This document shows, in pieces, positions 4,087 to 32,486 of a stretch of 64,000 nucleotides of DNA. Position 1 is the first letter of the stretch. The number at the start of each line of letters is the position of its first letter. The position numbers and the translations under genes are program-made. The stretch comes from Lingula anatina (lineage: Eukaryota; Animalia; Brachiopoda), in the NCBI GenBank assembly GCA_051362555.1, contig CM120641.1, positions 26,914,401 through 26,978,400 of the forward strand, in the 5' to 3' direction. Under the pieces are notes generated by a model. The model was given only the letters and a program-made list of their open reading frames with translations, made no database searches and was not told where the DNA came from.

Positions 4087-7000
4087 TCATAACTTCACTA
4101 TGCCATTGTTATCAGCTTTGTCAATCAGTGCACATAGGATTGGAGACTCTACCTGTAAGTGAAAAAGAAACACCTTAACAGTCAGTTTATATTTTTAACA
4201 AAAACCATTTGAGAATTTCATACTGAAATATTTTTTAAGATTCAACACTAGAATTTACACTTTTTCACACAAAAAGCATAACATGATGATTCATTAGGCA
4301 TTTCATCTTTTTTCATTTGAAGTAACTAGATTATTACTTACCACTAAAATGTAGACACAAGATTCTGGTTCAACAAGGTACAATGATACTGCATGCGAGC
4401 TATCAGTATTTTCCTTACATCTGGATAAAAAAAAATAAAAAAGGATAATTAAACAAAACATCTCCACTTCACATGTTGTTAGAAGCTTTTTTATGGTGCA
4501 CTGTGTACTAAATGTTCATATTGCCATGCCATAACAGGTAATAAATAACTACTACTATATCTGTCATTTTAAGTATGACAAAAGAATACCGATACGGAAA
4601 TTGACATACTTTATCCTGACTTCTGCATGCCTTGGCTTTCCAGATATATCACAGTAATCACCAGCACCATAAAAATGGCTGATAAACCTGTAAAGAAGAT
4701 AAAACATTAGGCAAATCAAGTTACTCAATGTTTTACGTGCTTTGTACTATATCCTTAACAACTGGTTACGTATTAAGAATGGCCATCAGTGCAGATAACA
4801 TGTAGTTTACTTTTGAAATTTATAAGGGCAATTAGAGACGTTCCACATGTGTTTACATACTTCCTTTCTTTTATTGGTTTTGGTCTCTTAGAAGGATTCT
4901 CCCCAAGCCACTGCAGATGTCTTCCTTCACTCCACACCCCAAGTGTTATCACAGTTTTTGAACCACCTTCCTAAAAACAGGAAATGGGTGAGGTGTAAAA
5001 AGTTATTAGTTCTCTCTCTAAATTCTGAGAGATATTTTGTTTCAGTAGTTTATCTATAACCATGAATTTCACATTAAACTTTATATTTATATTTATATTA
5101 CTGTATATCAGTCTTGAAAGTCTATATATCATAAATTAAATAATTCAACTTTACAAACTAACAAATAATTTGAAAAATAAACTTGTGTAAATATAAATAT
5201 TAAATGCATTTGAGAAAAACAAGAAAATAAGCAGCCATTCAAAATATTGTCATAGTCAGAATGACATTATCCAAGTAACAATACTTCATACTCACTTCAT
5301 GGAACTGAATTAAATGTTTTCCATAGCAAAATTCATGTTTCCACCACCCCAGTCCCTATAAAGGAAAATATTCATGTTACAAAGGATTGTGAGAGTTGAT
5401 GAGCCAAGAATGGAGAATACTGTTACTTTTTCAGTCCTTGAATTTTATTTTAATGAGTCACCTATCTCACCTATCCGCATCACCTATCTCATAATTGCTC
5501 AATAATGCAAATGATCAGAAATATTTTTTTAAAAAATCATTATTCGTTCATCAACAGGAGTCTTATAGTTGCCATGTTATCCATAATCTTGTAGACTATT
5601 GCCCCAGAGTTTGGTAGAGTGGGCAGAGCAATATGTATTATTATAATTAGGCAATTCTACCCTGACCATCCAAGCAACAAATATTTGAAGAGGAAAAACT
5701 GAACAGCGACTCTCCCTTAAGCCCAAACAAACCTTTAACGAAATATAAAATTCCTGAGCTGAGAATCTTACCCCTTGGATGCAATATTCTCCTTTTAAAA
5801 AGTCGTTCAACAATTGCTGGTCTGTGCTGGACTTGAGATCTGTGCCATGAGAACCCTTGCTGGAATCCCACGATGGCTGCTGTACAGTTTCCTGCTGGGG
5901 TCTCTGAATAACTGGATGCACCTCTTGTGTCTAAATATAAATCTGAATGTTAATATCATTTCTAATTCAAAAGCATGAAGTAATTTTTCTTCAGTCAACG
6001 GTTTAATATTGAAAAAGTTACCTCCAATATTTGAATGTCTAACAGAACATCTTCATCAGTGAATGAGGCTTTTCAGGTGAACAGCCTCTATTGGAGGTAA
6101 CTATTTCAATATTAAGCTGTTGACTGAAGAAATATTACTTCATTCTAATAACATAACACAGTCGATGAAATTCTTCTCCAATTCAAAAGCAGGTTTTAAA
6201 ATATAAACATTTTTGTTTTGTAATATCTAATAAGGTCTTCTGGTCAGGTGGTGTTTAAGTAGTGACCTGGTCAAGCTGAAAACAGGTTGATGAACCCAAA
6301 TTGCACGAGGTGGTATGTTACATGTATAAAGAAATGGCATTTATTTCACTTGAAAAAGTATTCCATAAACCATACTGCTCAACTTTAAGAATTTCATAAC
6401 TGCTTCCTGGCATACAATGTGACAGCACCTTTCCAGTAGGTATAATCGAAAAGCTGTTTCAGCACAAACCATCTGGCTAGATCTTACCTGTTTTCTATTA
6501 TATCTCCCCTGAGTATTTTCTAGTTCAAGTAAATCTAGACTTTTTGGTCTTCTAGGAGAGCCATCTAAAGGCTCACAGCGTATTCCTTGCACAGGCTGGT
6601 CTGCTGTTCTAAAATAAAACAATATAACAACAGTTTTTATGATGATGATGATCATACGTCACTTCATTGACAAGACTTACATAGTGTAAAGATCAATTTC
6701 CAATCTTCCCCGCTCCATAAAACATCAACTGTACAAAACAATGCTTTATGACAGAATTATGATTTTATTAATTCATTTTTACATATTTAAAAATATGTAA
6801 AAAAAAAAAAAATATATATATATATAGGCATTGTTATATAGATATAGTTCTCACTCTTTTATTTTCATGTTTAAATTTTTGGTCAAAGTGACAATTAATT
6901 AAATTCTACCATACACTTCAAAGGTAAACCAAATAGTTTTGCTGTTGCTCTTTTATTTCAAAATCTATTATTTTCAAGATAATGAATTATCTTTTAAAAC

Positions 7001-9695
7001 ATTATGACATTATGTACTTAAGAAGAAATGCTATGTGACTTACTTATAAGCTGGATGAGAACAGAGTAGTGCTGTTAACACGACCACCTCATATTCACAG
7101 CTAGACGTCTCCTTCAGTTCATACACTTCTCCTTTGCCATCTGGTTGACAAACATAGTGCAATCGAGCCTTTCTGTGCTCTCCTGTCAGATCACATTTAG
7201 TGCCTTCTGTGAAGTTGACTTGGTAGTAAGTCAGCTCCATATTGTCTACTTTTCGCTTTTTATGAGGCTGGAAGATGCAAATATGACTAAGTTCTTGTAA
7301 AGATAGGAATACAATGTGACACAAAGTGTTGTTAAAATCGTGACATACATAAGGTTATGAAACTGATTGCAATCTCAATCTGCAAGAAAAAAAAGCAAGT
7401 TTTTAAAAACCTGTTCTCTTTTCTAACTGATGGTATAATAAGAAACAAGTAGTGTACCTTTTGCGCATCTTCTACAGGTGGTTCTTGGTTGTTATCTTCT
7501 TTTTTGTAATATCCAAGATAATATTCTTGCAGATGCCCCTTCTACAATATAACATGATTCTTCTTATATATGCTTTATGCAATGCATAACCCAATAAATT
7601 TTTCAAGGATATTTTTGCAAGACATTTTTTTCACATGTTTAGTGACACAATGAAGAAATTTGTTTAATATTCTTTTTTTTTTTAGATAAAGTCAATTCAT
7701 ATAGTTACCTTGCCACTTTCTTTGACTTCATGATATTGCCTCAAATATTTTCCATGGCACAGCTCATACGTCCAATAGCTCTCAATCTAAAAAAATATTG
7801 GATTAAACGGAGAACAATATAAATGGTAAATGAGAGATTTCTCACAAACAAAAAATAACATTAATACTACACAATTTATGAATAAAACATAACTATCAGA
7901 AAAATGTAATAGTTCATGGGGCCATCCTAAAATGTGCAATACAGCACAACATAGCACATAAAGTATTCACAGGAAACGGTCATTTGCAAGAAAATAGGGT
8001 GACATAGAAGCACAATATTTTACTAGGTAACAAATATTGTTGATTGTTGATACTGTTTGTTTATGGATTGTTAGTTCATCTGCCATATTGGCCACCAGAG
8101 AAGTTATAGGAAGTGTTTTTTCTTGGAAATATGGCAGATGACCTGGCATAAATAAATCATACCAATGTAATTTTCACAAAAGAAATCTTACAGATGAACA
8201 TAACTGGTAGATTTTCTTACCCTATATGAACAGCTACTTTGCTTATATAATGGACTTAACAGCTCTTCTTCACTTGGACCATTGTGATTCAGTTCTTCCT
8301 GCAAATAAACAGAATCAAACAGATGTCAGCAAATCCTTGCATAACAAAGCACGATGAAATGAATAAGATTACCATACTGTTTTTCATTCTGACAGTCTTC
8401 TGCATTGCTAAAAACCTTACATCTTAAAGGCATGAGTGTACTTTTAAATTCTACTGATCATTTCTAATTTTTTAATCCAAATTTTGAACTGTTTTTTCCC
8501 CCTCTTTTTTTCAATATCAATAACACAGAGTCCAGTACAATTTTCCACGTAACAGTGGTTCTTTATTTTCAACTTCCTTACACATCTACACCATTAGCCT
8601 TAACACTTACACACATAGCACTTTTTTACCTGTGAACGAGATCCTGAGGATTGAGGCTTTGGGAAAATGCATCTATATTTTTCCTTGTTGTTTGTGGTAA
8701 GCAATAAACTATCTTCATCCTAGAAAATAATCAGCATCCATACATAATTTGTTCATATACATTAAAACATACATTATACATTAAAAGGCATTGATTCTCA
8801 TCAAATACACATAGTAGATAATGAAAATGTTTAGACTACTTTTCTTCTTTCCCCTCCCCCTTAAATGCACAATACAGCAAAAACAACTCTGCTTGCAAGC
8901 AAACATAGGAAAAGGTCATTCCCAAGAAAATAGGGTGATATAAAAGTGAAATATTTGATTAGGAATGAACATGTTGATAAAACATAACAAACCAGTATGA
9001 TATGTGGTACAATTTGTTTATCTTAGGATAATATTTCTACGAAGAGCTACTAAGAAAAGCTACTAGCATATACGTGTAGCTCTTCATGAGTGGCCATCAT
9101 GGCAGATGATCTGACGATAAACAAAAACAAATTGGACATTTTTTTATTTGGATGAACGATATTAATAACCTCATATAAACGTTGCTTTTATTTCACCCTA
9201 TTTTCTTGTGAACAGTTTTTCCTATGTTTATATGTCACCAAACTCGTTTTTTCTAGTATACTGCACTGTATAATGTATTGTAGTATGATCCGTTCTTCAC
9301 CTGTTTTATTATTAATTACCTTAGGAAAAGTACTATACCCAAGGTTTTTCTCAGTTAACAAAATGGAAAAACTAATTTGTTCATTTCATATAAATATCAA
9401 TCTATGATGTTTTAAATTAGCTACAAAACGATACCTATAGAACGGCAGTTAACGAAGAAATTGGGGGCCTCCATCGATTCTAACATTAACGCCAGTCATC
9501 TTACAATTAAATAATTTAAACATCTTGGTGATTTTTAGAACTCACATTTAGAAGATTGTCTTCGTCGGGAAATGATGCTGCAGGCACCCAGTTAATGGTA
9601 TGTAAAACATCATCAGAAAAAGGATTAAAGTCTGTTCCCCCTGAAGTAAAAATACTGACGAAAATAACTAAGAAAACTTCCTTCTCAGGCTTCAT
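4087..9695 (-). CDS. ERLEC1: Endoplasmic reticulum lectin 1 (XTP3-B), two MRH domains, 13 coding exons
   Basis: Minus-strand exons 9695-9546, 8719-8630, 8298-8221, 7786-7709, 7541-7458, 7267-7044, 6608-6488, 5930-5772, 5355-5296, 4970-4861, 4687-4610, 4420-4342, 4152-4087 have consistent phases. Signal-peptide-like N-terminus, then [99 protein letters not shown] and [11 protein letters not shown]. Confidence 0.92.
5975..6143. mobile_element. Small palindromic MITE (hairpin element) in an ERLEC1 intron
   Basis: ATGAAGTAATTTTTCTTCAGTCAACGGTTTAATATTGAAAAAGTTACCTCCAATA pairs with the near-perfect reverse complement TATTGGAGGTAACTATTTCAATATTAAGCTGTTGACTGAAGAAATATTACTTCAT (about 55-bp arms). Confidence 0.75.
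8865..9268. mobile_element. Degenerate inverted-repeat MITE; a related partial copy lies at about 7935-8200
   Basis: Left arm AAACATAGGAAAAGGTCATTCCCAAGAAAATAGGGTGATATAAAAG versus right arm CTTTTATTTCACCCTATTTTCTTGTGAACAGTTTTTCCTATGTTT. The same CAAGAAAATAGGGTGA core recurs near 7987. Confidence 0.6.
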
Positions 9696-9970
9696 GATGT
9701 TTTTCTTACACACGAAACTGTCACGACATCGTGGAGATTACCCATTTGCTGTTCAACAGGTCAGCGCCACATCAATAAGAGTCCCGCATCGATACAAGGA
9801 ATTTTAAAAAATATAGATTATAAACTTATCGAATAGATTATTTCGCTCAGTATTTTATAGAATTTCTATATTTATTACTGATTGTTATATAAGCATTTAA
9901 ATTCATTTTGTCTTCTTAAACTTGTGAATTTTACACCTGTCACTCCCGTTTCTGCGAGACAACATTAAGG
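9696..9970. promoter_or_regulatory. Bidirectional promoter between ERLEC1 and TMEM87
   Basis: Divergent start codons (9695 minus, 9971 plus) only 275 bp apart, with local CpG retention. Confidence 0.75.
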
Positions 9971-12900
9971 ATGGCGAATAATTTAGAAGGGCTAGTGCTG
10001 GTGTTGTCGCTTTTTTTGGCAAGTGTAATTGCAGTAGAGCAAGGAAGATGGCAATTTTCGCTGAATCAGGTACATTTCTTAAATGTTTTTGATGGCATCA
10101 TTCGTTAATATGAAGGATAGATGTCTGTTCTTATTTCAGTGGGATATGTGACGTGGAATTATTTTTATTTTCACAGTTGTAACCTTATATCTTACTGATT
10201 TGATATTTTATATGACATTTCGTCTGAAAGAAGTACTTTAAGTGTTTATTATATAGTCTGTGCTGGATGAAAATTGTCCATTTATTCACTCTTTCCTTCT
10301 TGTTACGTCCCCATTGAATCCATCTTCCACTGATAGAGGCTACATACTGAGTATTTATATTTTCCCCCCGAGACATACTAAAATGCGTAATACAGAGCAG
10401 TATGCTAGTACGAAAATGAGTCAAAAGTTTCTCAACTTCATTTTCAAAAAACGTCACTTGGACTTTGTCATGCAATGAGTTTAGAAGCTAGTCATATACA
10501 TGGGAGAGGAACGTCCAAACAAGGAGTACATGCATACTAAAGTTGGTGTATTTAGTGTATTCTGTTGAAGTGTAAGAAACTTTCCTGAAGAGTAGCTGTT
10601 TTAAAATCAAGTGCAGATATTTCTCAAAACATTGTTATATAATAACAGTTAAAAGTGCTCTGCACAATCATAGAATGTTACATTATTGATAGTGACATAT
10701 ACCTATTTTTTTTATCTTTTAGGACAATGCATATGCCATGGTACACAAGACCATGTATAATAACACCCCTGTATCAGTAAAAGGTAAGTCAATAGTGTTT
10801 GGAAAATAATTTGATTTTCAGTTAACATTTACACTCCTCATTTGACAAAAGTGGTATGTTGCAGTTTGATGGTGAATGTTATTTTTCTGGATCTTAAATT
10901 TGAATTTTATTTGCAGTTGACTGCTCAAGTAATGTGAAGATAAGAGTACAGTGGAAGCTACGATATCTACCATGCTATATAAGTGCAGCTGAAGGGGTAT
11001 GTTTATTTTTTTTATCATTAAAGTTGTATAGTTTAGACATGCCCTTATCATTTGATTTTGACATGCTTGCATTTGTCAGAAAAATGACTAAATGAAATGA
11101 GAAACTGACAGTTCAAAATCCTTATTATTTCAAAATATCATGCATTAGCAATATATATGTCTTACTTCTTAACCAACCACATTTTCTATACTGGCAGACA
11201 TTTACAGAATCAACTTTGTATGTAGAATGCTTCACTGCATAAAAATCACTAACATGGATTGTTTTGAAAGAACAAGTAGTAACAAAGACATTAAGAATGT
11301 AAAAAATTATCTGTAAAAAATGTTCTGATGGTTGATTTAAAAATTGTAAAGTGAAAAATGTTTATTTAAAGGATGTACCTTCATGAATAACTTCAAATTA
11401 ATTTTAATCATTGATTTTCACGAATTTAGGCATACTTAATATTGGATTTTGATAGAAAAATTATTCATTGACAAGTATGATAGATCAGTTATGTCTTTTT
11501 TTTAAGGGAGACTCACAAGAACAAAATTCTAATAATTTTTACAACATGGATCACAGTCCCCTTGTGGAGTTTGAAAACACACTAGGACAGATTAGAGTCC
11601 AAACTAGTACTGGGAATAATACTGGAGATTGTGGACAGCTAACATTAAAGGTGAGGACAATAGTGTCTTTAAGCATTGCCATCATCTGGTGCTGGAGGTA
11701 TGACCATTCAACTTTTTTCTTATTGCAATAGCTAGGCAGTGATAATGTCATTTGGCTTCAAGCACATGTAGAAATCTCACTGCTCTAATATGACAGTCAA
11801 GCTCAAACATGGGCTTGATCTGATTTTCTTTTCAATAGTTTTGGCATTGTGGGCACTGTATCTTCTAAATGGTCACTGTTAAGTTAAAGCTTATATCTGC
11901 CAGGGTTAATTATTGGCCTTCAATGTACATCAAGTTCAAATTGGGCACAGTCTGATTATTCTTTTTTTTTTCATTTTATTTTTATTTTTGTAATTTTTAT
12001 TTCTCTATAACGTATTGTTTACCTTTCTTGTTATAAAGAGTTTCATAAGATTATATTGCTCTGCTTTCAATAAAAATGAAGTGCACAATTTGTTTTTGTG
12101 ACTTAACTTTTTGCATTTGATTAATGAAATATACTTTTTCCATGTATTGAATTTAACTCTAAAAACAAGGGATGGACAGAAATGAAGCACTTGTAAACCA
12201 AATGTGACTTTTAAACATTGGCTGAGATTTTTCAGTTCATTCATTTGAAAAGTTCCTTTTTATAAAGTTTTCTGATTGAACTTTTGTAGGATGAGAGTGG
12301 TGCGCCAATTAATGTGATACGATTTACCACAGTAAGTATTAGTGCACAGCCCACCATTATTATGAATTATTAAGAGGCATTATAAAGCAGGATATCATAG
12401 ATAAGTGTGTGGTATTAGTTTGTATAATTTTAGGTTTTCCCAGCAGCACTACAACAGTGAATATAAGATCAAAAAAGCTCTTTTCACATGGAATCTCTTA
12501 AATTGAGAAATAGTTACAATTTGGTGTTTTACATTTGAACAGATCTTTTCTTATTCCATGATTTCTGATAATGGTGGATTTAAAGGGTGGGACACAGTCT
12601 GTTAAATGGTACAATGATTTTACATTTTTGTTTGATGAAAATTTTAATTATTTTTATTCTAGACAAATATTACTGAAAAAGCCAGTGATTCAAGTGATAA
12701 AAGTGTAGGCTCAGAAGCTGGAAAGGTAAATAAGTAATATGTGTGTCTTGAAATCTTGCCTTCTTTGTACGTCTGCTTCTTCATACACTACATGTATGTG
12801 TCAGGCCTTCATGCTGTTTGAGGTCACAGTATATAGACTTTTGCAATCTCCTTTGTGGGGATACAAGTTTTTTTTAAATCATTTATAATATTCTCATGCT

Positions 12901-15900
12901 TATGTGAATTAAGAGACTTATTTTGTCTACAAAATTCTAATTTGGCTATTTGATCTAACTACCTACATATACCTAATACCTACGTATATACTAATCTTCC
13001 TACCTACCAACCTTCCCCCCCCCCCCCCCCCCATCCCCCTGCCTGCCTCTTTTAGCTTTTAGGTTTGTTTCATTTACGGTTAATTATCTCTGATTACATT
13101 TCAACTTTAAAAAAAGGTTGATATGTGTTGTATTATTTTTCATCAGGCTGGTAAAGTCAAACGTCAAGCAACGCCTCCTTTAAATGTGGTAAGAATGGTC
13201 TTATTCTTCAAAATGCTTCTGCCTTTGAAGGTTGAATGATTTGTTGACTTTCTGACTGCATGTCACCAGTAAATTATTTATTTTTGACAAAAATAATCTC
13301 TAATAGAAATCTCAAATAGAAAATAAGCTTGGTTTAAGAACTGCTTCAAAGACAAAACATTTCAGTTACTCATGTATATATTTTGAATGATAAACGTTTT
13401 AAAGTTTAAGACTTAAAAGACTTATTGTCCAGCATCTGTGATGTATTTTTGACAGACCAAAACAAAAGCAGTAACGACTGCTGCAGTCACGGTAGCAGGG
13501 CCACAACCAGTAGAACAAAGTACAAAAGGTCAAACCAACAAGCCAATGCCTGCTGGTAACAAGGTATTAACTTGTTCTTTTCTAATAAATAAAGACTGTT
13601 AAATGAAGAGGTTCCAATTTAAGATTTATGCAGCCATGACATAGTGGATGGCTGGTTTGATTAAAATTGATGCTGTCTCCTGTTTTGCGCCAGAAAATTG
13701 GACAGTTAGTTTGCCCATGCCTCTCAGGGTAGGAAATGTGTGCAGCCTTTAGATGGCTCTCTTCAGTCAATAAAAGTTGGAAGTTTGATGACCAAAAGCT
13801 CATTATTTGTTCATTGATGGTTGATTTTCTTGAAGGTTCTGATGTTTGTTAGTTTTTATCAATAAGAGTGGAGAACAAATGCTTATCCTTCTATTTAACT
13901 TTTTTTCTCATTAAGGAGGACACGTCATATGTGGCTCGTGCCTGGCAGGATGGTACCTATGTCTTTATGATAAAGGTGTCTTCAGAAGAAAAATTTGATG
14001 TATCAGGTAATATTTGAAGCCCATTGTTAGTTTTTGTCATCTATTTGTTGATTTACTTGTTTATATGTAAATGTGACTGTATTTTTCTGAGCATTTTGTG
14101 TTGGAAGTTTTTGAATGAGTTGTACTTGGATTTAACACTTAATAATTGGTGTCCATTGTTATTGTTTAAACTATTGGTCTGGTGATATGTTGATGTAACA
14201 CCTAATTTTTTGAGCATTTTGTGAGATATTTTAATATAAACCATACCTCATGTGTCATGATACTGCTTTATTTTCAGTGGATATCAGCATTGAGAATGCA
14301 CATGGTTATCTGTCAGCTGTGGATTGGCCACTTATTATCGTGAGTACCCGTATATTAAACATATATAACCTCTGTATTAGCATAGACCAAATTTGGTAAT
14401 TTCACAAAAAGTAAAAAGATCCTGTTTTTTTAAAGAACAACGTAGATGGGATTAAAGTTAAGCATTGGTGTTTTTCAGTTATTTTTCATGCAGTAAAATG
14501 TGTAAATATTATTGTTCTTATTTTCCAGTTTTATGGTGTCATGTGCATCATTTATGTGCTGTATGGATTATTGTGGCTTATCATGTCATTTTGTAATTGG
14601 AAAGATTTACTGAGAATTCAGTTTTGGATTGGAGCAGTCATTTTCTTAGGTATGAATACTTAATATATAACTATTTCACTTTAAGGACACTTTAATTTCA
14701 AAATTTGAGGACCTTGTGTCAGCACTGAGATAATAAGTAGTATCCTGTAAAATTGATTCATGCAAAAAGTTTCATAATACTATATAGATCTGAACAGCAT
14801 AAAAAGCCTGTTACATTTACTTTTCATTAATTTTTTTCAGGAATGTTGGAAAAAGCTGTATTTTATGCAGAATATCAGTCCATCAACTCAACAGGAAAAT
14901 CTGGTAAAAAAACCCCCAAAATTAGACTTATTTTAAAAAGATGTTCTATTTTTGTGTAAGTTGCCTGAAACCTTTTATAATTTTTTTTTCTGAAACTTCA
15001 AGTAATTCATTGCTAAGACTACCTTAAATGATGAGTGCAACATCTTTATTCATTGTTACAGTAAGAGGAGCCATTATAGTAGCAGAGTTGGTGTCCTGTA
15101 TGAAGAGAGCTCTGGCCAGAATGCTTGTTGTTATTGTCAGTTTAGGATTTGGAATAGTCAAGTAAGTACTTTGTAACTGTTTTCTTTTATGTGTTGTCCT
15201 ATACAACAGTGTTTGGGTATCATTCCCATCTTTTAAGCCATTTATTCTGATTTATTATTTGGGATATCTTTCCAAGGAACTGCTTTCACAAAATGAATAA
15301 AACCAGGAAACAGTCTTAGAAAATACTCCCCAGAATTTTAGCCCAGCTAATTGCCCTAGTTAATTGCTTTATAACAATAATTGAAAAAGCCTACAGCTCA
15401 TTATATATATTTACATTTACACTAAGATACATGTAGGTTGTTACTTATGAAGCCTTTACAGTCACCATCATTTGATTTTGATGGCTTCTTTGATGTGTTT
15501 ATTTTTTAAAATTCCAGGCCCCGTCTAGGTCCAATGCTTCACCGTGTGCTTGGTATGGGAGCCCTTTACTTTATTCTTGGATCAGTGGAAGGGTGCTTGA
15601 GAGTACTCAATGTGAGTATATGCTATATATAAGACAACAGAGAAAACAAGTGTGGCTGGGTGAGGACCTTATTGAAATTAGCATCGTCTATCTCTTCTTT
15701 AACCAGTTGGCATTTCCCTTGTTGAATGAGTATAATTTATTTATCTATATATTTATTACACATTTGAATAGAAAACATGGCCACAAAGTAATTGATTTTC
15801 TTCCAGTAGAAGATGAAAGAACATTGCAATGCTTGGTACTGTTTGAAGAAAGATACTGTGTACGCAGTCAATTTTCCATCACTTTCCCTCTACAAGTTAA

Positions 15901-18900
15901 ACACTCAGAGCTGCTTAATTAGGTATTTTTTATGCTGTTTTAATGAACGTATTCAGTTTGGAAAATATATGGCTACTGTTTTGTTTTGTTTTAGCCAAGA
16001 GAAGACCCAAAAAATCATGCTGCTCTTGCTAAAATCCCACTGGTGGTTCTCGATGCAGCAATTGCATTTTGGATATCCTTCCATTATGCCTGTTGTAGCA
16101 GTTTTGATGACTAACATTGCATGACCCCATATATAAATATATTATATTGGTCTTATCAAGCATGGGGTTTAGCAAGATCATGTTCTCTTTCCACATACAC
16201 ACACACACATATATTATAACCAATGCATGGTGTTACCTTTCAGCCTAGAGAAGACCCTGATAACCATGCTATGTTGGCACGCATACCTCTGGCAGTGTTG
16301 GATGCTGCCATTTGTTGGTGGATATCCTTTCTATTTATTAATTCCCTTGTGCTTAAAGTATTGCATGGGGATTATGCTAGTTTAGCTGTAGTTGGTGCTA
16401 ATTGTCATTTTTAACTTGCTACAAGGAGTAATTGGTTTTGGGTCAGCAAGGCATGTAACAGATAAACAACCAGGCAGCAAGGAGTTTTTGACACAGACAG
16501 GTGTGAGGCATGAGTGGATGTCACATACACATTGCTGGGGAATTGAGTAACTCACTTTAATTTGACTTGGGGATGGGTGTGTCATGCATGTATGCCAGGT
16601 CCACCATATTTGGTTCTTTTATTCTCAACATATACCATGGTATAAGAGCAGATATCATTACCTTATACTGACAATTGTGGCATGAGGGTGTAGTATATTA
16701 TTGTACCACCAGCGTTAGCGCTGGCGGTACACGTGGTTTTAGTCCCGTCCGGTCCGTTCCGCCGGCTCCGCCAGCTCTGCCGGCTCCGCAGCCATGTTAC
16801 CGTTACCGCTTCTCCTCCTAGACGGTAAGGGCCCCCATACCCATCTCTTGGATTTAGGTCACCTATAATCTCAACTCGTTCCACGTAAAATTTGGGCTTT
16901 GTCGGTATTGGGGCCTAGGTGTGGCATTCATTGCAATGCACCCTTGTCCAAAAATGGCAAAATTAAATGCTAATTATCTACCCTACGGAAGGAATTATGG
17001 GAAAAATTTCTACAGACGGCTTTCCAAAGGCATATGTGTAGATTTCAAATATGCCCTTGGATTTCACCTTTGACCTTTACTTCAAGGTCAAACGGGCCAA
17101 AATTTTCAAAAAAATGAATTTTTTTACAGAAAAAAAATTATTTGCGCTGTTATTCAGACACCACACAGACTTAACCAATAATATTATTGGAAAATGTTAC
17201 CCTTCAGGTCATCTTTCATATCCGTAATTTTGGGGTCAATCGGTGCATTTTCACGGGAGTAGCGGCCATAAGATACCGAAACTGAAAACTGTCTCTAATT
17301 CAGGAACCGTTAATGCTAGAGACCCATTCTTTTTTGCATTTTGTAGAGCATGTAAAGCCCAACACTGGAGGTGGTCTCCGTTTTTTTTTGTATTCCATAC
17401 GGTTTTCGAGTTACGCTGTATCAAAAAGTACATATTGGTGGTGAAAGCAAAATGTGCAGTGCGGTAATGGATAATAAATTTTAAACTCCGGAAAAATAAA
17501 ACATAAGGCTTGGTAAAGCAGACAACTTGTGGTCAAAAATGACATTATTTCATCAAATTTGAACTTCTGAAATTCAGAGCACCTCCCATTTCAAGAATTT
17601 TGACCAAAATGACCTTTTCTTTATTTTAATTAATTTTTTCTGTAGGAAATTTATGGCACATTATGGTAACCCCAAAATTATAACATTTAGTCCCTTATAT
17701 CTCCAAAACTGGCAGAGATAGGTCCATAGTTACTATTGAAGTTGAATAGGAAGTCATATACTGGCAATCTTACTGTGACCTTGAAATTGACCTTTGACCT
17801 ACTTTTCACCATGAACTGAACTTTGCAAATTTTGCTTCCCTTTTATCTCCAAAACTGGCAGAGATAGGTCCATAGTTACTATTGAAGTTGAATAGGAAGT
17901 CATATACTGGCAATCTAAATGTGACCTTAAAATTGACCTTTGACCTACTTTTCACCATGAACTGAACTTTGCAAATTTTGCTTCCCTTTTATCTCCAAAA
18001 CTGGCAGAGATAGGTCCATAGTTACTATTGAAGTTGAATAGGAAGTCATATACTGGCAATCTTACTGTGACCTTGAAATTGAACTTTGACCTACTTTTCA
18101 CCATGAACTGAACTTTGCAAATTTTGCTTCCCTTTTATCTCCAAAACTGGCAGAGATAGGTCCATAGTTACTATTGAAGCTGAATAGGAAGTCATATACT
18201 GGCAATCTTACTGTGACCTTGAAATTGACCTTTGACCTACTTTTCACCATGAACTGAACTTTGCAAATTTTGCTTCCCTTATATCTCCAAAACTGGCAGA
18301 GATAGGTCCATAGTTACTATTGAACTTGAATAGGAAGTCATATACTGGCAATCTAAATGTGACCTTGAAATTGACCTTTGACCTACTTTACACCATAAAC
18401 TGAACTTTGCAACTTTTTAATGCTTTTATTTTCAGAGATACGCCCATAGTTACTATTGAATTTGAATAGAAAGTCATTAGAGGCAATTAACTGTGACCTT
18501 TGACCTTCTTTTCACCATGAACTGAACTTTGCAAATTTTGCTTCCCTTTTATCTCCAAAACTGGCAGAGAAAAGTCCATAGTTACTATTGAACTTGAATA
18601 GGAAGACATATACTGGCAATCTTACTGTGACCTTGAAATTGAACTTTGACCTACCTTACGATGAACTTTAATTTGATTGTACCATTTTTAGTTATATATA
18701 TTTTTTGCATATTTTGAAAATTCTTGTTGATTGCATTTTTACAGCTTGTCAAGCACAAGACTGGTGGCTGTGTCCCTTATTTTGTGTATGTGGGGGTCTG
18801 TACGAATGCGCTTGCTCCAGCTGGTGGTACAATATTCGGAGGCGGTATCGCCTCTCTGATCCTCTAGTTTTTGAAATACTTTGATAAACTTTTTTATTGC

Positions 18901-21900
18901 CAAGATGCACTGAATTGCTCGATATAAAACAATAGATATGTTCCTTACCTTATCATAATTGTTAGCTAGGGGTTAACAAGCACCTTTTTTTTTAACCGAA
19001 AAAATTAGCATGACTTGTCCTATTATTACAACTGTTTTTACTATAACATGCCACAGATGACTGTTTTCAAACTGGAGGAACAGGGTTCGAGACATGCTTC
19101 ATTTGAGAATATTAAGAATTATTTTAGTATAATATAATTAATCTGATTTTCATTTTATTTGAAGAGGTGTTAAAAAGTTTGTTCAACTATTTTCAAAAGA
19201 TTGATTTTTTAAGAAGACTGTCAACACAAAGATTATATGAATTGAACAGGTCCATTTGTTTCCTTGACCTTTACCAAGTATTCTCCAGTCTTGTCCAAAC
19301 CACGAGGACTCTGAGACTGAGGAGAAATGTAGTGAAGCTGAGCTTGTACAGGCATTTTACAAATACCTTGATATTTGCTGTAGTAGGTGAGTCAGGCTTC
19401 CCAATGCAAGAGTTTAATTTGAGGCATTTTATTGATAAAAATGAGAGCATTGAAAGTTGCCTGTAGAAGACATATAAATAGTTTGTCATCATCCTGTAAA
19501 TGTAATGTGATGTGATAACATTTCATGGTTTTTGAGTAAGGGAAGTGGTTGGTTCACACAAGGATGCTTGTATTACCCATGTTGTTTAGTTTTTCTGAAA
19601 AGTAACTGGTTATGCTTGATCATTTTCGTTAAAAGAATTAAAATCTCTTTTCCAGCCTCTGTAGCATTCATGATTTGGTCCATCAAGCAGCATACATTTG
19701 CTGAGTGCTTGCAGGTAAGTTTGGCATACTGAGAAGTGAATTAACCCCATAGGATCCAGTTAATGCTGACCCATAAAGCTCTGCTGTGCCCAATTAATTC
19801 TGTGAGCTAGCCTTGAAAAGCCGGGTCACCTCAGTAAATTGGTCATAATTTATTTGTTTGCCTTTATTACCCATACAAAGTATACATTTTTAAAAAGCCA
19901 ATATTTCAGGCTAAATGAAAATAGAATTACATTTAAATTTTACATGCAGTATCAAAAGTTACAGCCGGTTAAAAACTACATTTTCATTTGGTAATGGGTA
20001 AAATAAAACAAAGTTGATTTATTTTATGCACATCAATTTTTTTTTTTTCTACATACATTTGCCTGAAAATTCACAGGGATGATGTCAATTATAGTAACTT
20101 TCAATCCAGGAAATTTCATCAATTTATCTCTATCAATTTTCAAGTTATGATCGTTTTGCTATCAGGTATACCAGCTTTTCAGCTCACCTGAACATAGTGG
20201 CCAGAGCTGAACAGAAGTCAAATTTTTACACCATCTATGACAAAAACATCTTTAAAACTTATATCATGAATAAAGGAATATCATCCCCACTGTCTATATC
20301 ACTGTCACTCGAAAACACCTTATCAGTGTCGTAGTTTTCAATCATTTCAATAACAGTATTCATTCGCAGGCCCCTTCCGTAGTGAGAAGTCGCCATTTTG
20401 ATTTTACTTTCACCAGCTAGGTCTAGAAAATCGCCGATTTCTCGCTCATATATATTTCTATCGTCCTTTATATCATAAATAAATGAATATCAACGCCACT
20501 GTCTATGTTACTGTCACACGAAAACTTCTCTTCAAAGTCCAGATTTTCAATCATTTCAATAACAGTATCCCTTCGCAGGTCCCTACCGTAGCGAGGAGCC
20601 GCCATCTTGATTTTACTTTCTCCAACTAAGTCTTGAAAATCGCCGTTTTCTCGCTCATATATATTTCTATCGCCTTTAAAAATGGTGGCAATGATAGACA
20701 AGAAATATACCCGGATGTTAAACTATATATCATTTCATGACTCACGATACAAAAGAGTACAGAAGACGATCTTTCCAAGATACGCACATATGCGGTTCTG
20801 GGCGTTTGGGGTAAGCGATAATTGAACCGCACATATGCGGTGACGGGCTCTATGGGGTTAAATCGTACTTAAAAACCTGTCTGATATAACCGCCCATAAG
20901 TGATCACTAGTGTTGGAAAGTTACTTACGGTAAAGTCTTGAAAATTTCGTCGCTTAAAAATTAATTAATATTTTTAATTGAGTAAATCCGACTAATTTTT
21001 CAAAATTACCTCTCCCCGACTCCTGGGTATGACGAAATTTTCAAAAATCCGGCCTTTGGGCTTTTATCCTTAGCGACTGTTATCTTTGACCCTCCTATAT
21101 GGTGGGATATTTATTACTACTTCCTAAGTCATTTTCTGGTGGTAAATAATAACCTATTTATTAGTGCATCTCGATTAAGTTGTATTTAACTTACTGTACC
21201 CGAAAACATGTTGAGAATTATTTTCTCGGTAAGAAACATACCTCCTGATAGAGGAGAAGGATCAAGATAAGCCTAATTGCAACCTTGCATCATAACCTGG
21301 ACGCGACATGTTAAAAAAAATTACGGGATAAAAAAAATATGGGAACGTTTGTTGCATGCAAGGCTTTTCCCAGGATTGAGTGTCAGGCCTTCTAAAAATA
21401 CCATCTGTAACTTCCTAAACATTTACAGGGAGTTAAATAATGATCTCCCGTTGACGATCTTCCGCAATTTAAGTTCCTTGAACTAATATGAAAACTGCAT
21501 ATTATTATTGCTTACATCGATGAAGATGTGAAAATTGCCTTTTCGTCTAGCAAGGATCGCAAACGATCTCCCGCTGACGATCTTCCGCGAACGAAGTTCC
21601 CTAAATCCCTTGAACTAATATGAAAATTGCATTTCATTCTTGCTTACATCGCGGACGATCTCCCAAAGAAGATATGAAAATTGCCTTTTCGTCTCGCTCG
21701 GATCGCGAACGATCTCCCTCTGACGATCTTACGCGAACAAAGTCTTGACGATATTACGCGAACGATTCTCCGCTGAAGATATGCCGTGAGCGGGGGAAGG
21801 GGGGGTTAAAGATAAAATGAAAAATATATATTATTTATAAAATTCAAAGGGGGAGGGGGGGGGGTTAAATAATGATCTCCTGCTGACGATCTTCCACGAA

Positions 21901-24838
21901 CGAAGTTCCCTTGAACAAATATGAAAAGTGCATTTTATTCAAGCTTACATCGCGAACGATCTCCCGCTGAAGATATGAAAATTGCCTTTTTGTCTCTCTC
22001 GAATCGCAAACGATCTCCCGCTGATTATCTTATGCGAACGGAGTCCGCTACAAATATGAAAATTATCTTCTCGTCTCGTTTGGATCGCGAACGATCTGTT
22101 GACGATATTACGCGAACGATTCTCCGCTAAAGATATGAAAATTGCCATCTCGTCCCATTCGCATTGCGAATGATCTCCATGTACGAGCCAGGTAATCGTT
22201 AAATGGTCCTAAACTGAACATGGGCATGAATAGAAGTGACGGGTACATTTCATTTGAGATAATATCTTGATTTTTTCATTGTGTCTTCCTCATTTAGGAC
22301 AGCCGCCGATAACAATAACGGCGTTACAAATGACAAAGACGCGGCCTGTGACTTCTATTTGCCGGCTTGATAACGCACCTTAAGCCAGGTAATAGTAATG
22401 CAACTAAAGACAAAAGGCCGACGTTCCCGCAATTGAGAACGGGAATTCACATCTAAACCATCTATATTGTGAGTAACTGCTCGCAGGGGCGCACTATTGT
22501 TCCTATCTCCCATTGAGAGTGTTATCGGCAATGATATCCTGATCGTATCATTGTCTTGAATCAACTGACGCATTACCTTCACGTTTGAGCAGGACAACGC
22601 CGCCATATTTGGTGACGAACTTTTCAAAAATTATCGAGTACCTCATTTTCAAGGTCGACGAAGTTTTCAAAGGGAAAAAAATTACGTCGGCGGAAAATCG
22701 TCTGTCGACGAAATTTTCAAGAACGACGAAATTTTCAAGACTTTACCGTAGTCCAGGTGCAGCACAAGTTCCTTTTTATCATGTTTTTGGAATAAAGAAG
22801 GATGCGTAATGCTTTTAAATTGCATACATTCTATGGTAATTTTACTCTGTATATGTCATTTTAATTAAAACTACGATGAATTATTATGAATTATTTTATG
22901 TATTCAGGACTGGGCAGAGTTGTGGTTAGATGACGCCTACTGGCACCTGCTGTTTTCTGTTATTCTAATGGTGATAATGGTACTTTGGAGACCCACTATC
23001 AACAACCAGAGGTAAGCTGCACAATTGGCAAGATTTTGAATGCAAAGAATCTTTGCTGGTTTTGTTTCTTTTTCTGTTGAAGCTCATATATCTTTCTCTT
23101 TTGTTGGCCTTTATGATGGATATGTATTAGATATAATGCAGTATGTAATATTTCTGCATTTTCTTTTTCATGGCTTCTTTTCATGGATTATTGAACTTTC
23201 ACCAATGCTCTCTCTGTTTCAGATATGCATTCTCCCCACTGCTAGATGCAGCAGACCAGGAAGCAGAGGAACCCATGATGAATGATGCTTTTGGTTAGAT
23301 TTGATGTTTAATTTTTAAAGGCCATAAAACTTATGGCAACAATAATGTGTAATTAATAGTAGCTACTGCATGGGGTTGTGATAAGTATTTGACTTTTTGA
23401 AAGGCACACAAGTTAAACATTAATACACAGATTTTAATATTTCTTGGAGATTTCAATTCCTTTCCATTAATATAGTCAGTTGCACAGTATTCAAAACTGT
23501 TCACAGATATATGATCCATGTAAGTTCAAAGTTTCTGGTTTTTGAGTGCCTCTTATAATGAAGATAGACTGGTGATTTTCACTTGTGGAGCTAAAAAAAG
23601 AATTTTAGAAGTCAAAAACATCTTGATAGATTGTAATTTTCTCAATGATTTTGGATATAGTTGTACCCCCAGCGTGGCGCTGGCGATACACATGGTTTTA
23701 GTCCTGACCTGTCTCGTTTACCTTGGTGATGGAAAATATGCTATATAAAGGTCTTACATCACATGCCTTTAAATCTGGATCACTTAACAACACTCTTTGC
23801 ATTTCAGAGGGAATGAAGATGAGAGGATTAAAAGCTGAAGGTCAAGTGAAGCCCAAGGAACCAGCCTCCAAAGTGGTACGTTCTGGCTACCCCTCTAATG
23901 CCCAAAGTGCTTCCTGTAGTGTATAAAAGATAGCTCTCTTGCTGATGTTGCATATGAAGATTATCTTTGAAACTGTGAATTTCAAAATAAAAATTTTACG
24001 AAATAAAAAAAAAAATATATATATATATATATATATTATAGCATTTTCTGTACCAAGTTTTGTACTATTGAAACTGTGTATATGGTATTTGATTTATTTA
24101 TTGTTTTACAGGAGGACGATCTGAAGTGGATAGAAGAAAACATTCCTGCATCAGTAGCTGATACGTAAGGATTGATTTTCGTGGATACTTCTGTTTTGGT
24201 CTTTTCATCAATGTTGAATTTTATTAACAATAACACAGTTCAACTTTGTTAAAGGGATAATAACTGTTCATTTTGGCCAAAAAATGAAATTTCCCGGAGT
24301 AAACAACAATTTTCCCATACTTACTAATGGTAAATGAACCCATTTCTACAATCAAAGTTAGTCCCTGTTTTTTTTTCTGAAAAGTTTGGTTTTATGTGAT
24401 AACCTCTTTAGAGATTATTACAGAGTATAGCCATCTATGGAGGTCACGTGGTCTGATGACAAGCTCAGATATCAGAATAATAGAAATACGTAACTGCTGT
24501 TTTTGTGGTAAAACATAATATATAATATTTCTATGAGTTGTTTACAATGTTTTTATTGTGAAATATAGATCTCATATGAAGAGTTATTATCCCTTTAAAT
24601 GACTCGAAATTAGTTTTCAACTGCATTTGTTAAATGATTTGAAGTTATCTTTTTCTTTATAGCTTTCCACAAAATAATCATGAATTATTATTGAACAACA
24701 ATATAGTGAAATGAAATCATTAATATTTCTTTTCTTAATCCCAATATAAATCTGTTCCCTTCTAGTGCCCTCCCAAGCCTGTTGGATTCAGATGAAGAAA
24801 TCATGACCACCAAGTTTGAGATGTCCAAGATGGAGTGA
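9971..24838 (+). CDS. TMEM87A: Transmembrane protein 87 (GOLD + 7TM, LUSTR/GOST family)
   Basis: Exons 9971-10069, 10723-10783, 10917-10996, 11507-11650, 12290-12331, 12663-12725, 13147-13188, 13456-13563, 13916-14006, 14278-14339, 14529-14649, 14841-14903, 15062-15161, 15518-15611, [15995-16072 or 16244-16321], 19278-19386, 19656-19714, 22908-23011, 23223-23293, 23808-23875, 24112-24164, 24766-24838. Motifs: [108 protein letters not shown]. Likely a single co-ortholog of vertebrate TMEM87A/B. Confidence 0.93.
15995..16072 (+). CDS. TMEM87A: TMEM87 alternative exon A (78 nt, [26 protein letters not shown])
   Basis: Acceptor TTTTGTTTTGTTTTAG, phase 0-0, open frame, followed by the U12 donor ATATCCTT at 16073. 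Confidence 0.85.
16244..16321 (+). CDS. TMEM87A: TMEM87 alternative exon B (78 nt, [26 protein letters not shown])
   Basis: Acceptor TTACCTTTCAG, phase 0-0, open frame, followed by the U12 donor ATATCCTTT at 16322. Confidence 0.88.
16699..18868 (+). mobile_element. Non-autonomous Helentron-type element (HINE/pearl-like) inside the U12 intron
   Basis: 5' subTIR TATTGTACCACCAGC with adjacent inverted repeat (GTACCACCAGCG-TTAG-CGCTGGCGGTAC) and a GTCC/CCG-type microsatellite. Internal tandem array. 3' inverted subTIR GCTGGTGGTACAATA (18820-18834), hairpin GAGGCG-GTAT-CGCCTC, and a CTAG end followed by a T-run. Confidence 0.8.
17695..18665 (+). repeat. 146-bp tandem repeat array, about 6.5 copies
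   Basis: CTCCAAAACTGGCAGAGA recurs at 17701, 17847, 17993, 18139 and 18285 (period 146). One shortened, diverged unit follows, then another copy at 18553. Confidence 0.95.
19745..20857. mobile_element. piggyBac-like non-autonomous transposon
   Basis: TTAA|CCCCATAG ... CTATGGGG|TTAA (TTAA target duplication, CCC/GGG termini). Internal ~210-bp direct duplication (about 20258-20467 and 20468-20676). Two CGCACATATGCG quasi-palindromes near the right end. Confidence 0.75.
20928..22748. mobile_element. Tc1/mariner-pogo-like non-autonomous element with internal minisatellite
   Basis: TA|CGGTAAAGTCTTGAAAATTTCGTCG ... CGACGAAATTTTCAAGACTTTACCG|TA (25-bp perfect TIR, TA duplication). Subterminal GACGAAATTTTCAA repeats. 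Internal degenerate repeats of GCGAACGATCTCCCGCTGAAGATATGAAAATTGC (about 21450-22180). Confidence 0.8.
23661..23720 (+). mobile_element. Isolated 5'-end remnant of the same Helentron-type family as 16699-18868
   Basis: TTGTACCCCCAGCGTGGCGCTGGCGATACACATGGTTTTAGTCC closely matches TTGTACCACCAGCGTTAGCGCTGGCGGTACACGTGGTTTTAGTCC at 16701. Confidence 0.7.
24253..24594. mobile_element. Short TTAA-flanked MITE (Kolobok-like termini)
   Basis: TTAA|AGGGATAATAACT ... AGTTATTATCCCT|TTAA. Confidence 0.6.
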
Positions 24839-26844
24839 AAATATGGATGAATTTACACTTTAGTTTCTGAAGGGATGAAGCACGATTTGATTATTAAGGG
24901 TTGGGTTTCCTTTATATGGAATTGTCAGTGATGTCATGCTCTTCAAGATATCTATTTGGGATGTCATTCCTCTCCTTTCTGACTAGCTCACCTGTGCTAA
25001 AATATCTCTCAAGCAACTTACAGGGAAAATTGATGAGACAGCTAACAGTTTTAACTTGTTAAAAGCAAAAGTTGTTTCTTTAAGTTGTTAACTTTAAAAT
25101 GCGCATTTCAGTATTTAAAAAGAAAAAAAAACGTACTTTTTATTAACCGTGCCCAATTGTTTGCACATCATATAGAGTTAAAAGTGAAGCATAAGTTGTT
25201 TAGTGTTTAAACCATCTTGGCTTACAATAACTTTAAAAGATGACAATACAAGGCCCTTTTCACATTGTGCAGTTTATTTAACTTCATCGCATTGTTTTGA
25301 GAGATTGATGACTCAATAGCCTGGCTATTATGTAAGAGTCATCTAAATGGAGTTACTGCCATGGCCACAAAATCGGATTCAATTTGATTGATCCAGGCAG
25401 TTGTATACAAACTAGTGATAGGGAGCATAACTCCCCATTACATTAGGGTCAGTCTTGATGTTGCGGTACAGGCAAGTAAACGAGTGAGAAGGGCCCAAAG
25501 TATACATCATTTGATTTCTTTACCCTGTCTATGTATGACTGGAAATCATTCAGTCGTAGATTTGTTGATTTTGTTACATCTCACATTCATGATCTCTCGG
25601 CTATAAATAAGGGCAAGTTATTATGAGGGATTGATTTATTTGCTGGGGTGATGCCTAGATTATTGTATATTCCAGAATTAAATGTGCAGCTGGTTAAGAT
25701 GTGTTGGGATCTTGTGGTATGTGTAGTTTGTTTCAATTTTTAGATTATTTAATTGGGGGATATAGATTTTGACTGTAGTATTCTGAGGAAGTGCACAATA
25801 TACAATTGCTTTTTGTCAAATCATGCTGATGTTTAAGGAGCTTATTTTGTTGTATATATGATAATATATATATTCATGTTCCATATGTAATAATTTCGAA
25901 GGAAATTTCAGATTTAAAGTTATTATTTGTTTTCAGTTTCCTTTAATTGTATAATATTTTTACTGTGTAAATAAAGTGGGTCAATCTCTATTGCCATGAA
26001 TTTTTTAAAGTTAATTCTTCATGAATATTTTTTCTAATAATCTGTGAACCTCCAGTATTGGGATGCAAAATGGTCTAAAGGTTGGATAGATTGACTTGCA
26101 AAAGTCCAGATTTTGTCAGATGGACTCCTTTTTCGTATAATTCCACAATGTATGTTATATTTGTACATGGTTATTTGATGAGTCGGCAGTTGATTATTAG
26201 GACTCTCTTTGGGAAATCCAAGAGCACCCTGGAGTAGACGTGCTCAGCCAGTTTCTGTGACCCAAAAACATTTAATTCATGATCCTAGAATAAAAAAATA
26301 GTATGTTCTTTTTGAAATGTAAATTCAAAATGCATAGAAGTTATCCTCAAGATAATATATGTCGCCAATCATAAAAAAACATACTGGTTTTTAAAACTTG
26401 GCTTAACACTGCTAACAAATGGACTTATAAGTGTAAAAATGACCGTAATTTACAACTGATAATCTGGAGCAATCCTTGTGTCTTTACTTACATGAATAAC
26501 TCCCACAAATACGAAATTTAATATCATTCGATACATATGTTGCCTATATTTTTAATAAGTTTTAGCTGCATTTAATGCATGTTTCTTAACAATGGAAGGG
26601 ATACTGAAAAAAAAACATAACTTGTCTTCAATACAAGGGTAACGAGACAAAAACATCACTTGTCTTTAATAAAAGGGAAACGGGGCAGAAAATATTACTT
26701 GTATTCAATCGATTTGTTAAAATTGTTCATATGATACATTTACCGACACATACTTTTCCATATTGCGTGTAGATATTTTTATTCTTATTTTCAATTTGTT
26801 GTCCCTCTTTTAAGCTAACACTTAATTCTTAGTGTATATGACGT

Positions 26845-26847
<3 letters not shown>

Positions 26848-26916
<69 letters not shown>
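26848..26916. repeat. (TA)n microsatellite
   Basis: Uninterrupted TA run of about 34 units. Confidence 0.97.
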
Positions 26917-26918
<2 letters not shown>

Positions 26919-27069
26919 TGTGAACATTTTTCGCAGATAGTTGAAGGCAAGAAATATTTTTTGTCTCGTTTTCTTTTATTTTAATGTAACATTAAGACAT
27001 GAGTGTTGGCAAAATAAAAGACAAAATGAAAGACAACCAATGAAAATGGAATAAATAAATATTTACACG

Positions 27070-27742: not shown

Positions 27743-28746
27743 CTATTCTTCTGACACCATATTGAACCTGTTTTGATCAAGGAGACATAAAATTAATTGT
27801 ATTTATGTAGGAAATGGTTTGTTTTGGTGGTGGTAACAACTTTTTGATAATACATGAACTTTTTGTTTATAGGAATTGGGTCTTGTATCTGCACATTTTG
27901 ACCTTAAGTAGTTGACCAAGGCAAGGTGATAACAGATGCATAGGGTTACGGAATGTCTTAGCTGCTGTGTATCTAGGCACACGCATTTATATTTTATGAA
28001 AGATGTTCTGGGAACTATTTGTATCGAGCTGCATCAGTGAGAAGTCATTCAGCTTTTTAGCTACGGAGATAATTTCCCGCAGTTTTAGCAGCTACACTGT
28101 AATATTAGTTACGTTACTTTATTTGCACACTGGTTACCAGCCATCATGTGGTTTCATGGTTTGGGGACGGCTATTTGTTACTTTGTGACTTTATTTTCTT
28201 CGGATAATATTCAGCTTTCCCAGCCACCAGTTTTGTTATTCAAGTTTCGGCGACGGCCGTTTCCTTTTATTGGGTGACTTCCAAGTTCTTGGATCACACA
28301 CAGGGTAGTATTTCTTTAGTGTCTTCATTTTTTCCCCTTATTCATGTGCTCTTATCAACAGATTTGTAATTTGTTTTGTGTTGCAACTGCAGATGTTAAC
28401 TATTTTGTTTAGGTGTCCCTTCATCATGTTATTCTTGATTTTCTTCTTTTGTGTGCATCTATTTTATATATGTTTCTATTCCCACAGGTGTTTCAGAAAA
28501 CATTACTTGCTATTTTTCAGCACGTGTAAACTATACGAAAAACAGCAACAAAATTAAGACTAAAAATCCTGAAATAGGGCATAATCCTGAAAACTTTCAC
28601 CGGCATAATTTTTAACAGTTATAGACAATGATAATTAAAAATGCCATATTTGATTCAAAATGGTTTTATTATTCTATAGATTGTTTTGCTTGTGAAATCT
28701 GTCTTTATACAGCAACCATTTCTTCTGTACACAAATAACAGTTAAT

Positions 28747-32486
<3,740 letters not shown>

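Follow-up and report, generated by a model that had tools for sequence, protein, structure and literature searches.

The TMEM87 locus and its duplicated exon

We analyzed a 64,000-nucleotide stretch of the genome of the brachiopod Lingula anatina (assembly GCA_051362555.1, contig CM120641.1, positions 26,914,401–26,978,400 of the forward strand; hereafter, the window), which carries a TMEM87 gene with a duplicated exon. The coding span (9971–24838, plus strand), located by tblastn with the RefSeq Lingula isoforms and by the Pfam domain GOST_TM, encodes a GOST seven-transmembrane (TM) protein of 594 amino acids (aa). A preliminary description of this DNA had named the gene TMEM87, and the assignment holds: One constitutive exon is 100% identical to RefSeq Lingula anatina TMEM87A isoforms X1 and X2 (XP_013381526.1 and XP_013381527.1), three of the six TMEM87 exon peptides exceed the Pfam cutoff for PF06814, and the PDB matches of the peptide are exclusively TMEM87A, the nearest solved structure. 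Exon 1 is only 94% identical to RefSeq, for which reason the window probably derives from another individual or assembly than the RefSeq source.

The constitutive exon at 15518–15611 is joined to its predecessor (15161>15518) in all four RNA runs examined (X3, X6, X9, and X4, which bear the same species label) and ends at the U2 donor GTGAGT at 15612. Two paralogous 78-nucleotide (nt), phase-0 exons follow on the plus strand: exon A (15995–16072, ending ...IAFW), the derived copy, and exon B (16244–16321, ending ...ICWW), the ancestral-like copy. Reads cover A (at 16009) in three of the four runs and B (at 16285) in all four. Typing splice sites by their match to consensus, we found a U2-type acceptor, a pyrimidine tract plus AG, before each exon (for A, a T-rich tract with TTTAG at 15975–15994) and the U12 donor ATATCCTT after each (16322–16329 for B). 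The 171-nt spacer between the exons (16073–16243) is a hybrid intron with the U12 donor ATATCCTT, the U2 acceptor CCTTTCAG, and no U12 branch site. Coordinates, lengths, translations, and all of these sites, including the upstream GTGAGT, agree with what had been described.

The donor motif RTATCCTT is not enriched across the window (nine observed vs. 5.5 expected), and an exact branch-site partner was not seen for any of the seven remaining sites in the window. We consider the motif telling despite its chance-level count because two copies sit precisely at the ends of two homologous exons. Both donors occupy the same position as the minor donor of human and mouse TMEM87 (TGGATATCCTT, PMC6717393 supplement).

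The two copies are identical at 20 of 26 aa and 50 of 78 nt, and 17 of the 28 nucleotide differences fall at third positions, in line with the earlier remark that many third positions differ while residues are conserved. By codon, nine are identical, 11 differ synonymously, and six differ nonsynonymously. The Nei–Gojobori estimates (pS 0.78, which is saturated, vs. pN 0.23; Fisher p 5e-5) bear out the proposed purifying selection on the pair. In run X9, five of the seven coding variants listed before 16300 were checked, and all five are synonymous, the exon A variant among them. The RefSeq isoforms X1 and X2 (594 aa each) differ at six residues, every one of them inside the duplicated exon: X1 uses exon B and X2 uses exon A, one copy apiece, and both run on into W|VFSSL.

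Behind exon B lies a long minor intron with a single U12 branch site, TTCCTTGAC (19260–19268, branch A at 19267, no mismatches), the lone exact match across the three introns, as had been claimed. The best U12 branch-site match in the last 45 nt of the spacer and of the upstream intron carries four mismatches in each case. In-frame acceptors are offered by AC at 19273–19274 (branch A at −8) and AA at 19276–19277 (branch A at −11); the optimum spacing from branch A to acceptor is near 11–13 nt. Both the W|V join in RefSeq and the alignment register at human W377|I378 point to the AA as the most likely shared acceptor, which would make this an AT–AA intron; no read was observed crossing the AA 19277 junction. 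We consider the AC (an AT–AC intron) less likely, as it would add a Gln within TM5, would leave branch A at only −8, and conflicts with both the RefSeq join and the human register. The downstream constitutive exon (19278–19386, VFSSLVQT..., from human I378 on) most likely starts where the preliminary description had placed it, with its acceptor refined to the AA just before, rather than an AC. One base beyond the AA is a U2-like AG (19277–19278) preceded by a fair pyrimidine tract, the use of which causes a frameshift and a stop 11 codons on. AT–AA is the commonest noncanonical minor terminus in animals (PMC10639083).

In an invertebrate metagenomic locus (L011), the orthologous minor intron (8508–8655) is GT–AG and phase 1 (TGG A|GTATCCTT...CCAG|TC TTC), one base away from its phase-0, AT-type counterpart in Lingula and human. 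An AG is retained in Lingula at the equivalent position (window positions 16322 and 19277 compared). Because this AG still stands where the L011 acceptor lies, AT–AA may be a remnant of a shift by one base from one minor-intron subtype to another, in either direction.

Proposed use and regulation of the exon pair

In the RNA runs, where depth was taken at variant sites, reads at exon A (16009) numbered 4, 6, 16, and 0 and reads at exon B (16285) numbered 2, 4, 33, and 4 in X3, X6, X9, and X4, respectively, against constitutive mean depths of 4.2, 12.4, 53.8, and 5.6. In X9, the deepest run (41–61 at constitutive sites), A and B together reach 49 vs. 54 at site 15548 (p 0.69), and each exon alone falls short (p 6e-6 for A and 0.03 for B). 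This additive depth fits one exon per message. Of 101 splice joints from RNA, 15 were listed, and six of these are constitutive TMEM87 junctions. The proposal that A and B are used in a mutually exclusive manner is supported, with exon anatomy, purifying selection, one-exon RefSeq models, and additive depth all in agreement with it. X9 itself is a sample from a diverged population or sibling species, a conclusion drawn from a two-base difference at the splice junction 14903–15064 in 45 reads and from fixed differences elsewhere.

The site arrangement suggests how exclusion would work. Both U2 acceptors would be open to the U2 donor at 15612, and the lone U12 branch site with its likely AA acceptor at 19277 would serve both U12 donors. 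Joining A to B would require a U12 donor to be spliced to a U2 acceptor; by analogy with JNK2 and mouse Tmem87b, we infer that this spliceosome incompatibility is what blocks it. Double inclusion and clean double skipping both preserve the reading frame, so that decay of the message cannot police either. The lock against skipping both exons may leak, given the U2-like AG at 19277–19278 and its fair pyrimidine tract; such a leak would shift the frame and reach a stop after 11 codons, so that its products would likely enter decay. Taken together, we think it likely that the splice sites of the duplicated TMEM87 exons of Lingula lock the two spliceosomes, major and minor, into an arrangement that leaves each message with exactly one copy, in a switch that is probably independent of its vertebrate counterpart.

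Exon choice may be regulated through a cluster of eight GCATG motifs (16119–16684), three in the spacer (16119, 16160, and 16225) and five behind exon B (16363, 16451, 16508, 16586, and 16680). In the 545 intronic bases 3′ of A and B, eight copies were observed vs. 0.44 expected, a count reached in none of 5000 shuffles; GCATG is the top 5-mer of all there (Bonferroni p 2e-5), the cluster is the densest spot in the window on either strand, and no GCATG occurs in the intron upstream of exon A. As a rule, Rbfox sites upstream of an exon repress it and sites downstream activate it. (U)GCAUG is the Rbfox motif (10.1101/2025.08.16.670673), and from the motifs we lean toward an Rbfox protein tuning the choice. 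The site at 16225 lies 18 nt ahead of the exon B acceptor and overlaps its acceptor region, which suggests that Rbfox would repress B and favor A. We also noted that TGCATG occurs 40–46 nt behind both U12 donors (16117–16123 and 16360–16367), as if the motif had been duplicated along with the exon.

Origin of the pair and competing explanations

Lingula and vertebrates share the same ancestral exon and intron positions, as the boundaries align and GT/ISF read-through in vertebrate gene models marks them. Vertebrate proteins contain two 24-aa types at identical boundaries, a divergent V1 and an IPLA-type V2, with a range from sharks (V1) and coelacanth (V2) up to marsupials. Read-through models place V1 upstream, with ISF (the translated donor) after both types. 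We inferred a tree from 36 hand-picked segments (22 invertebrate, eight V1, and six V2; 26 columns; mispredicted read-through rows excluded). Exons A and B form a clade (support 100/96), as do V1 and V2 (100/99), and approximately unbiased (AU) tests reject all four cross-pairings (p 0.013 for A+V1, 0.013 for B+V1, 0.004 for B+V2, and 0.0003 for A+V2). Over these 26 columns, copies do not sort by type across species. A and B also have in common a His8 found in none of 70 other distinct 26-aa segments.

Among the best 120 of 2102 matches, no second version appeared in the eight invertebrate genera represented by multiple named entries (Lineus, Branchiostoma, Limulus, Tachypleus, Periplaneta, Acropora, Pocillopora, and Tigriopus); one member of the Tigriopus cluster outside the named entries differs at two residues. 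All 14 amphioxus entries have a single version, and so do the nemertean, chelicerate, insect, copepod, abalone, and coral entries among these matches, which name no other brachiopod or phoronid. Out of 13 metagenome loci, L011 alone provides genomic DNA across the exon and its two introns, and there a single exon lies between a U2 intron of 170 nt and a U12 intron of 146 nt; L008 and L009 end before the exon, and the others are transcripts, are intron-poor at the exon, or cover other parts of the gene. Given the grouping of A with B, the rejected cross-pairings, and the single version in other invertebrates, the switch likely arose twice at one exon, and an independent origin in Lingula appears quite probable from these comparisons.

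In the leading competing explanation, the duplication is ancient in bilaterians and common to the Lingula pair and vertebrate exons 11/11a; gene conversion would have homogenized the Lingula copies, and most invertebrates would have lost the pair. This explanation would account for the same exon, boundaries, phase, and donor and branch-site cores as in human and mouse and for the divergent copy being the upstream one in both lineages (read-through models P0377 and P0394). The AU tests and the V1+V2 clade speak against it, and it would need many losses to explain the single version across the invertebrate entries listed and L011. Moreover, A and B are synonymously saturated and therefore have not undergone recent conversion. 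We consider a shared ancient origin unlikely.

Exclusion could instead be mainly steric or structural, with a branch point too near donor A or with RNA pairing, and with the U12 sites incidental. A CTAAC at 16111–16115, ∼42 nt behind donor A, and a 13-nt inverted repeat connecting exon A with the spacer would fit this explanation, which we nevertheless regard as improbable: Three AGs (16159, 16171, and 16175) lie between the CTAAC and the acceptor at 16243, and at 171 nt the spacer is long enough for splicing. An RNA-structure lock in particular was set aside, as folding is no better than in shuffles (z −0.46) and the 12 inverted repeats are all short; an Rfam scan of 9000–27000 returned no matches. 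We consider it very improbable that exon A is decaying or seldom used, or that messages often retain both exons, since despite the loss in A of residues invariant elsewhere (Cys24 in 70 of 70 and Trp25 in 69 of 70 other segments) and the lack of reads at 16009 in X4, its frame is open, its sites are intact, its synonymous divergence is saturated with only six aa changes, its X9 variant is synonymous, RefSeq models it, and the depths of A and B sum to the constitutive level instead of each reaching it.

Several points weigh against an interlocked and independently evolved switch. No junction read at exon A or B is among the 15 of 101 joints listed, depth on each exon is at most six in three of the four runs, and clipping of reads at short exons could also lower depth. 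The CTAAC behind donor A offers a second route to exclusion. The RefSeq W|V join may stem from other DNA, exon 1 being only 94% identical to the window. The tree has only 26 columns and long vertebrate branches, gene conversion could mask an older origin, and divergent alternative isoforms could be missed among the best 120 of 2102 matches. Regarding regulation, the region for the GCATG test was fixed only after the motif had been noticed, and five of the eight sites lie behind B, which blurs the regulatory direction.

Elsewhere in the window, the minor intron holds a repeat element (16698–18870) with 6.8 copies of a 146-nt unit (17691–18654), which is abundant in RNA (depth up to ∼3000) and has loose ends into many other loci. 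A multi-exon gene on the minus strand (∼2600–9698), which by its look may encode an ERLEC1/OS9-like lectin, stands head to head with TMEM87, with start codons ∼270 bases apart. Exons at 28745–29300 on the minus strand, one reading ...NRRFVNVV, presumably belong to FAU/RPS30. At 42895–42902, also on the minus strand, GTATCCTT is found with a near branch site (TTCCTCAAC) 166 nt further, a possible further minor intron.

Predicted consequence and comparison with known switches

Residues 9–26 of exon B align with human residues 360–377, such that residue 20 corresponds to D371, residue 24 to C375, and residue 25 to W376. The human structure contains a bound phosphatidylethanolamine, with D371 binding its phosphate and C375 and W376 touching its acyl chain at the TM5–TM6 gap (PMC11239671). 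Exon A retains the Asp and has Ala-Phe in place of the otherwise near-invariant Cys-Trp. The swap is predicted to leave the phosphate-binding Asp in place but to change the luminal TM4–TM5 loop and, in TM5, the face that contacts lipid. The preliminary description had the swap exchange a luminal loop plus one TM helix, which is right for the loop and too much for the helix: Most of TM5 is exchanged, and I378 and F379, still in TM5, are encoded by the next exon. In vertebrates, with V1 and V2 split by the IP motif in a set composed mostly of teleosts and including a few mispredicted rows, Cys at the C375 position occurs in one of 46 distinct V1 segments and all 12 V2 segments. The parallel with Lingula is limited to the Cys, because V1 mostly keeps W376. 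A common functional target in both lineages may be inferred, and the altered loop and lipid-contacting face could be the selected function of the swap, although we hold this to be somewhat less probable than its contrary.

The broader scenario would be that the TMEM87 exon was duplicated twice, in vertebrates and in brachiopods, that an ancient minor intron following it kept the copies apart from birth, that the upstream copy each time lost the conserved cysteine of TM5 at the lateral lipid gate, and that Rbfox controls the choice in Lingula. In its entirety, this scenario is tentative, and we would sooner doubt it than accept it. If true, minor introns would be repeat seeds of mutually exclusive exons, and selection would have found a TMEM87 lipid-gate isoform switch twice. 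Duplication of an exon that has a U2 acceptor and a U12 donor would at once make the copies mutually exclusive, and a second, separate origin in TMEM87 would be a natural replicate of that idea. It would also provide a hint of function for the uncharacterized TMEM87 isoforms, as both lineages change a position that contacts bound phospholipid in the human structure, which is testable in the human protein.

We found no paper on an invertebrate TMEM87 exon pair, although subscription papers and the tables of exon-duplication surveys, which may list such a pair, were outside the search. There was likewise no match for TMEM87 with AT–AA, with exon duplication, or in brachiopods or for convergent minor-intron mutually exclusive exons in invertebrates (subscription papers and most supplements lying outside the search), and no paper listed for TMEM87 with Rbfox was evidently about a TMEM87 exon switch. 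The layout itself is not a new kind of system: It is already published for mouse Tmem87a/b, and the novelty implied by the preliminary description was for that reason too high. That description had also overlooked the likely AT–AA acceptor, the U2-like AG one base beyond, and the Rbfox-type cluster. New in this analysis are the probable second origin of the switch, in a brachiopod; the probable AT–AA acceptor; the cluster of Rbfox-type motifs; and a lipid-gate hypothesis that can be tested.

Mouse Tmem87b has 72-nt mutually exclusive exons 11 and 11a with a U12 donor after both and no reads joining 11 to 11a (Olthof et al. 2019, PMC6717393); mouse cortex prefers 11a, and skipping of the upstream exon is also seen in Tmem87a (PMC6717393). 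A review (PMC8329584) groups TMEM87a/b with JNK as interlocked U2/U12 switches. Lingula and the mouse genes agree in gene family, exon position, phase, two U2 acceptors, two AT-type U12 donors, and one U12 branch site, whose core TTCCTTGAC is as in TMEM87A; in both, the upstream copy is divergent and the downstream one ancestral-like. Human TMEM87A, with donor TGGATATCCTTC and branch site AATTCCTTGACC (PMC6717393 supplement), has donor and branch-site cores identical to those of Lingula. On the other hand, the Lingula exons measure 78 nt rather than 72 nt, and they are each other's closest relatives and probably not orthologs of mouse 11 and 11a. The Lingula acceptor is likely AA, a possible further difference, and the Lingula pair has an Rbfox-type cluster, whereas the regulator of the mouse switch is reported as unknown and not Nova2. 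AT–AA noncanonical minor introns (PMC10639083) share the AT donor, consensus branch site, and AA end, and the Lingula acceptor would differ in serving two alternative donors. Vertebrate JNK (MAPK8/9/10) exons 6a/6b likewise have a hybrid intron with a U12 5′ site and a U2 3′ site between duplicated exons, described for JNK2 by Chang et al. 2007 (PMC1874599). JNK is a different gene, and in JNK2 a long pyrimidine tract sets the default and switching is driven by Nova, whereas the Lingula spacer has a short pyrimidine tract and GCATG motifs.

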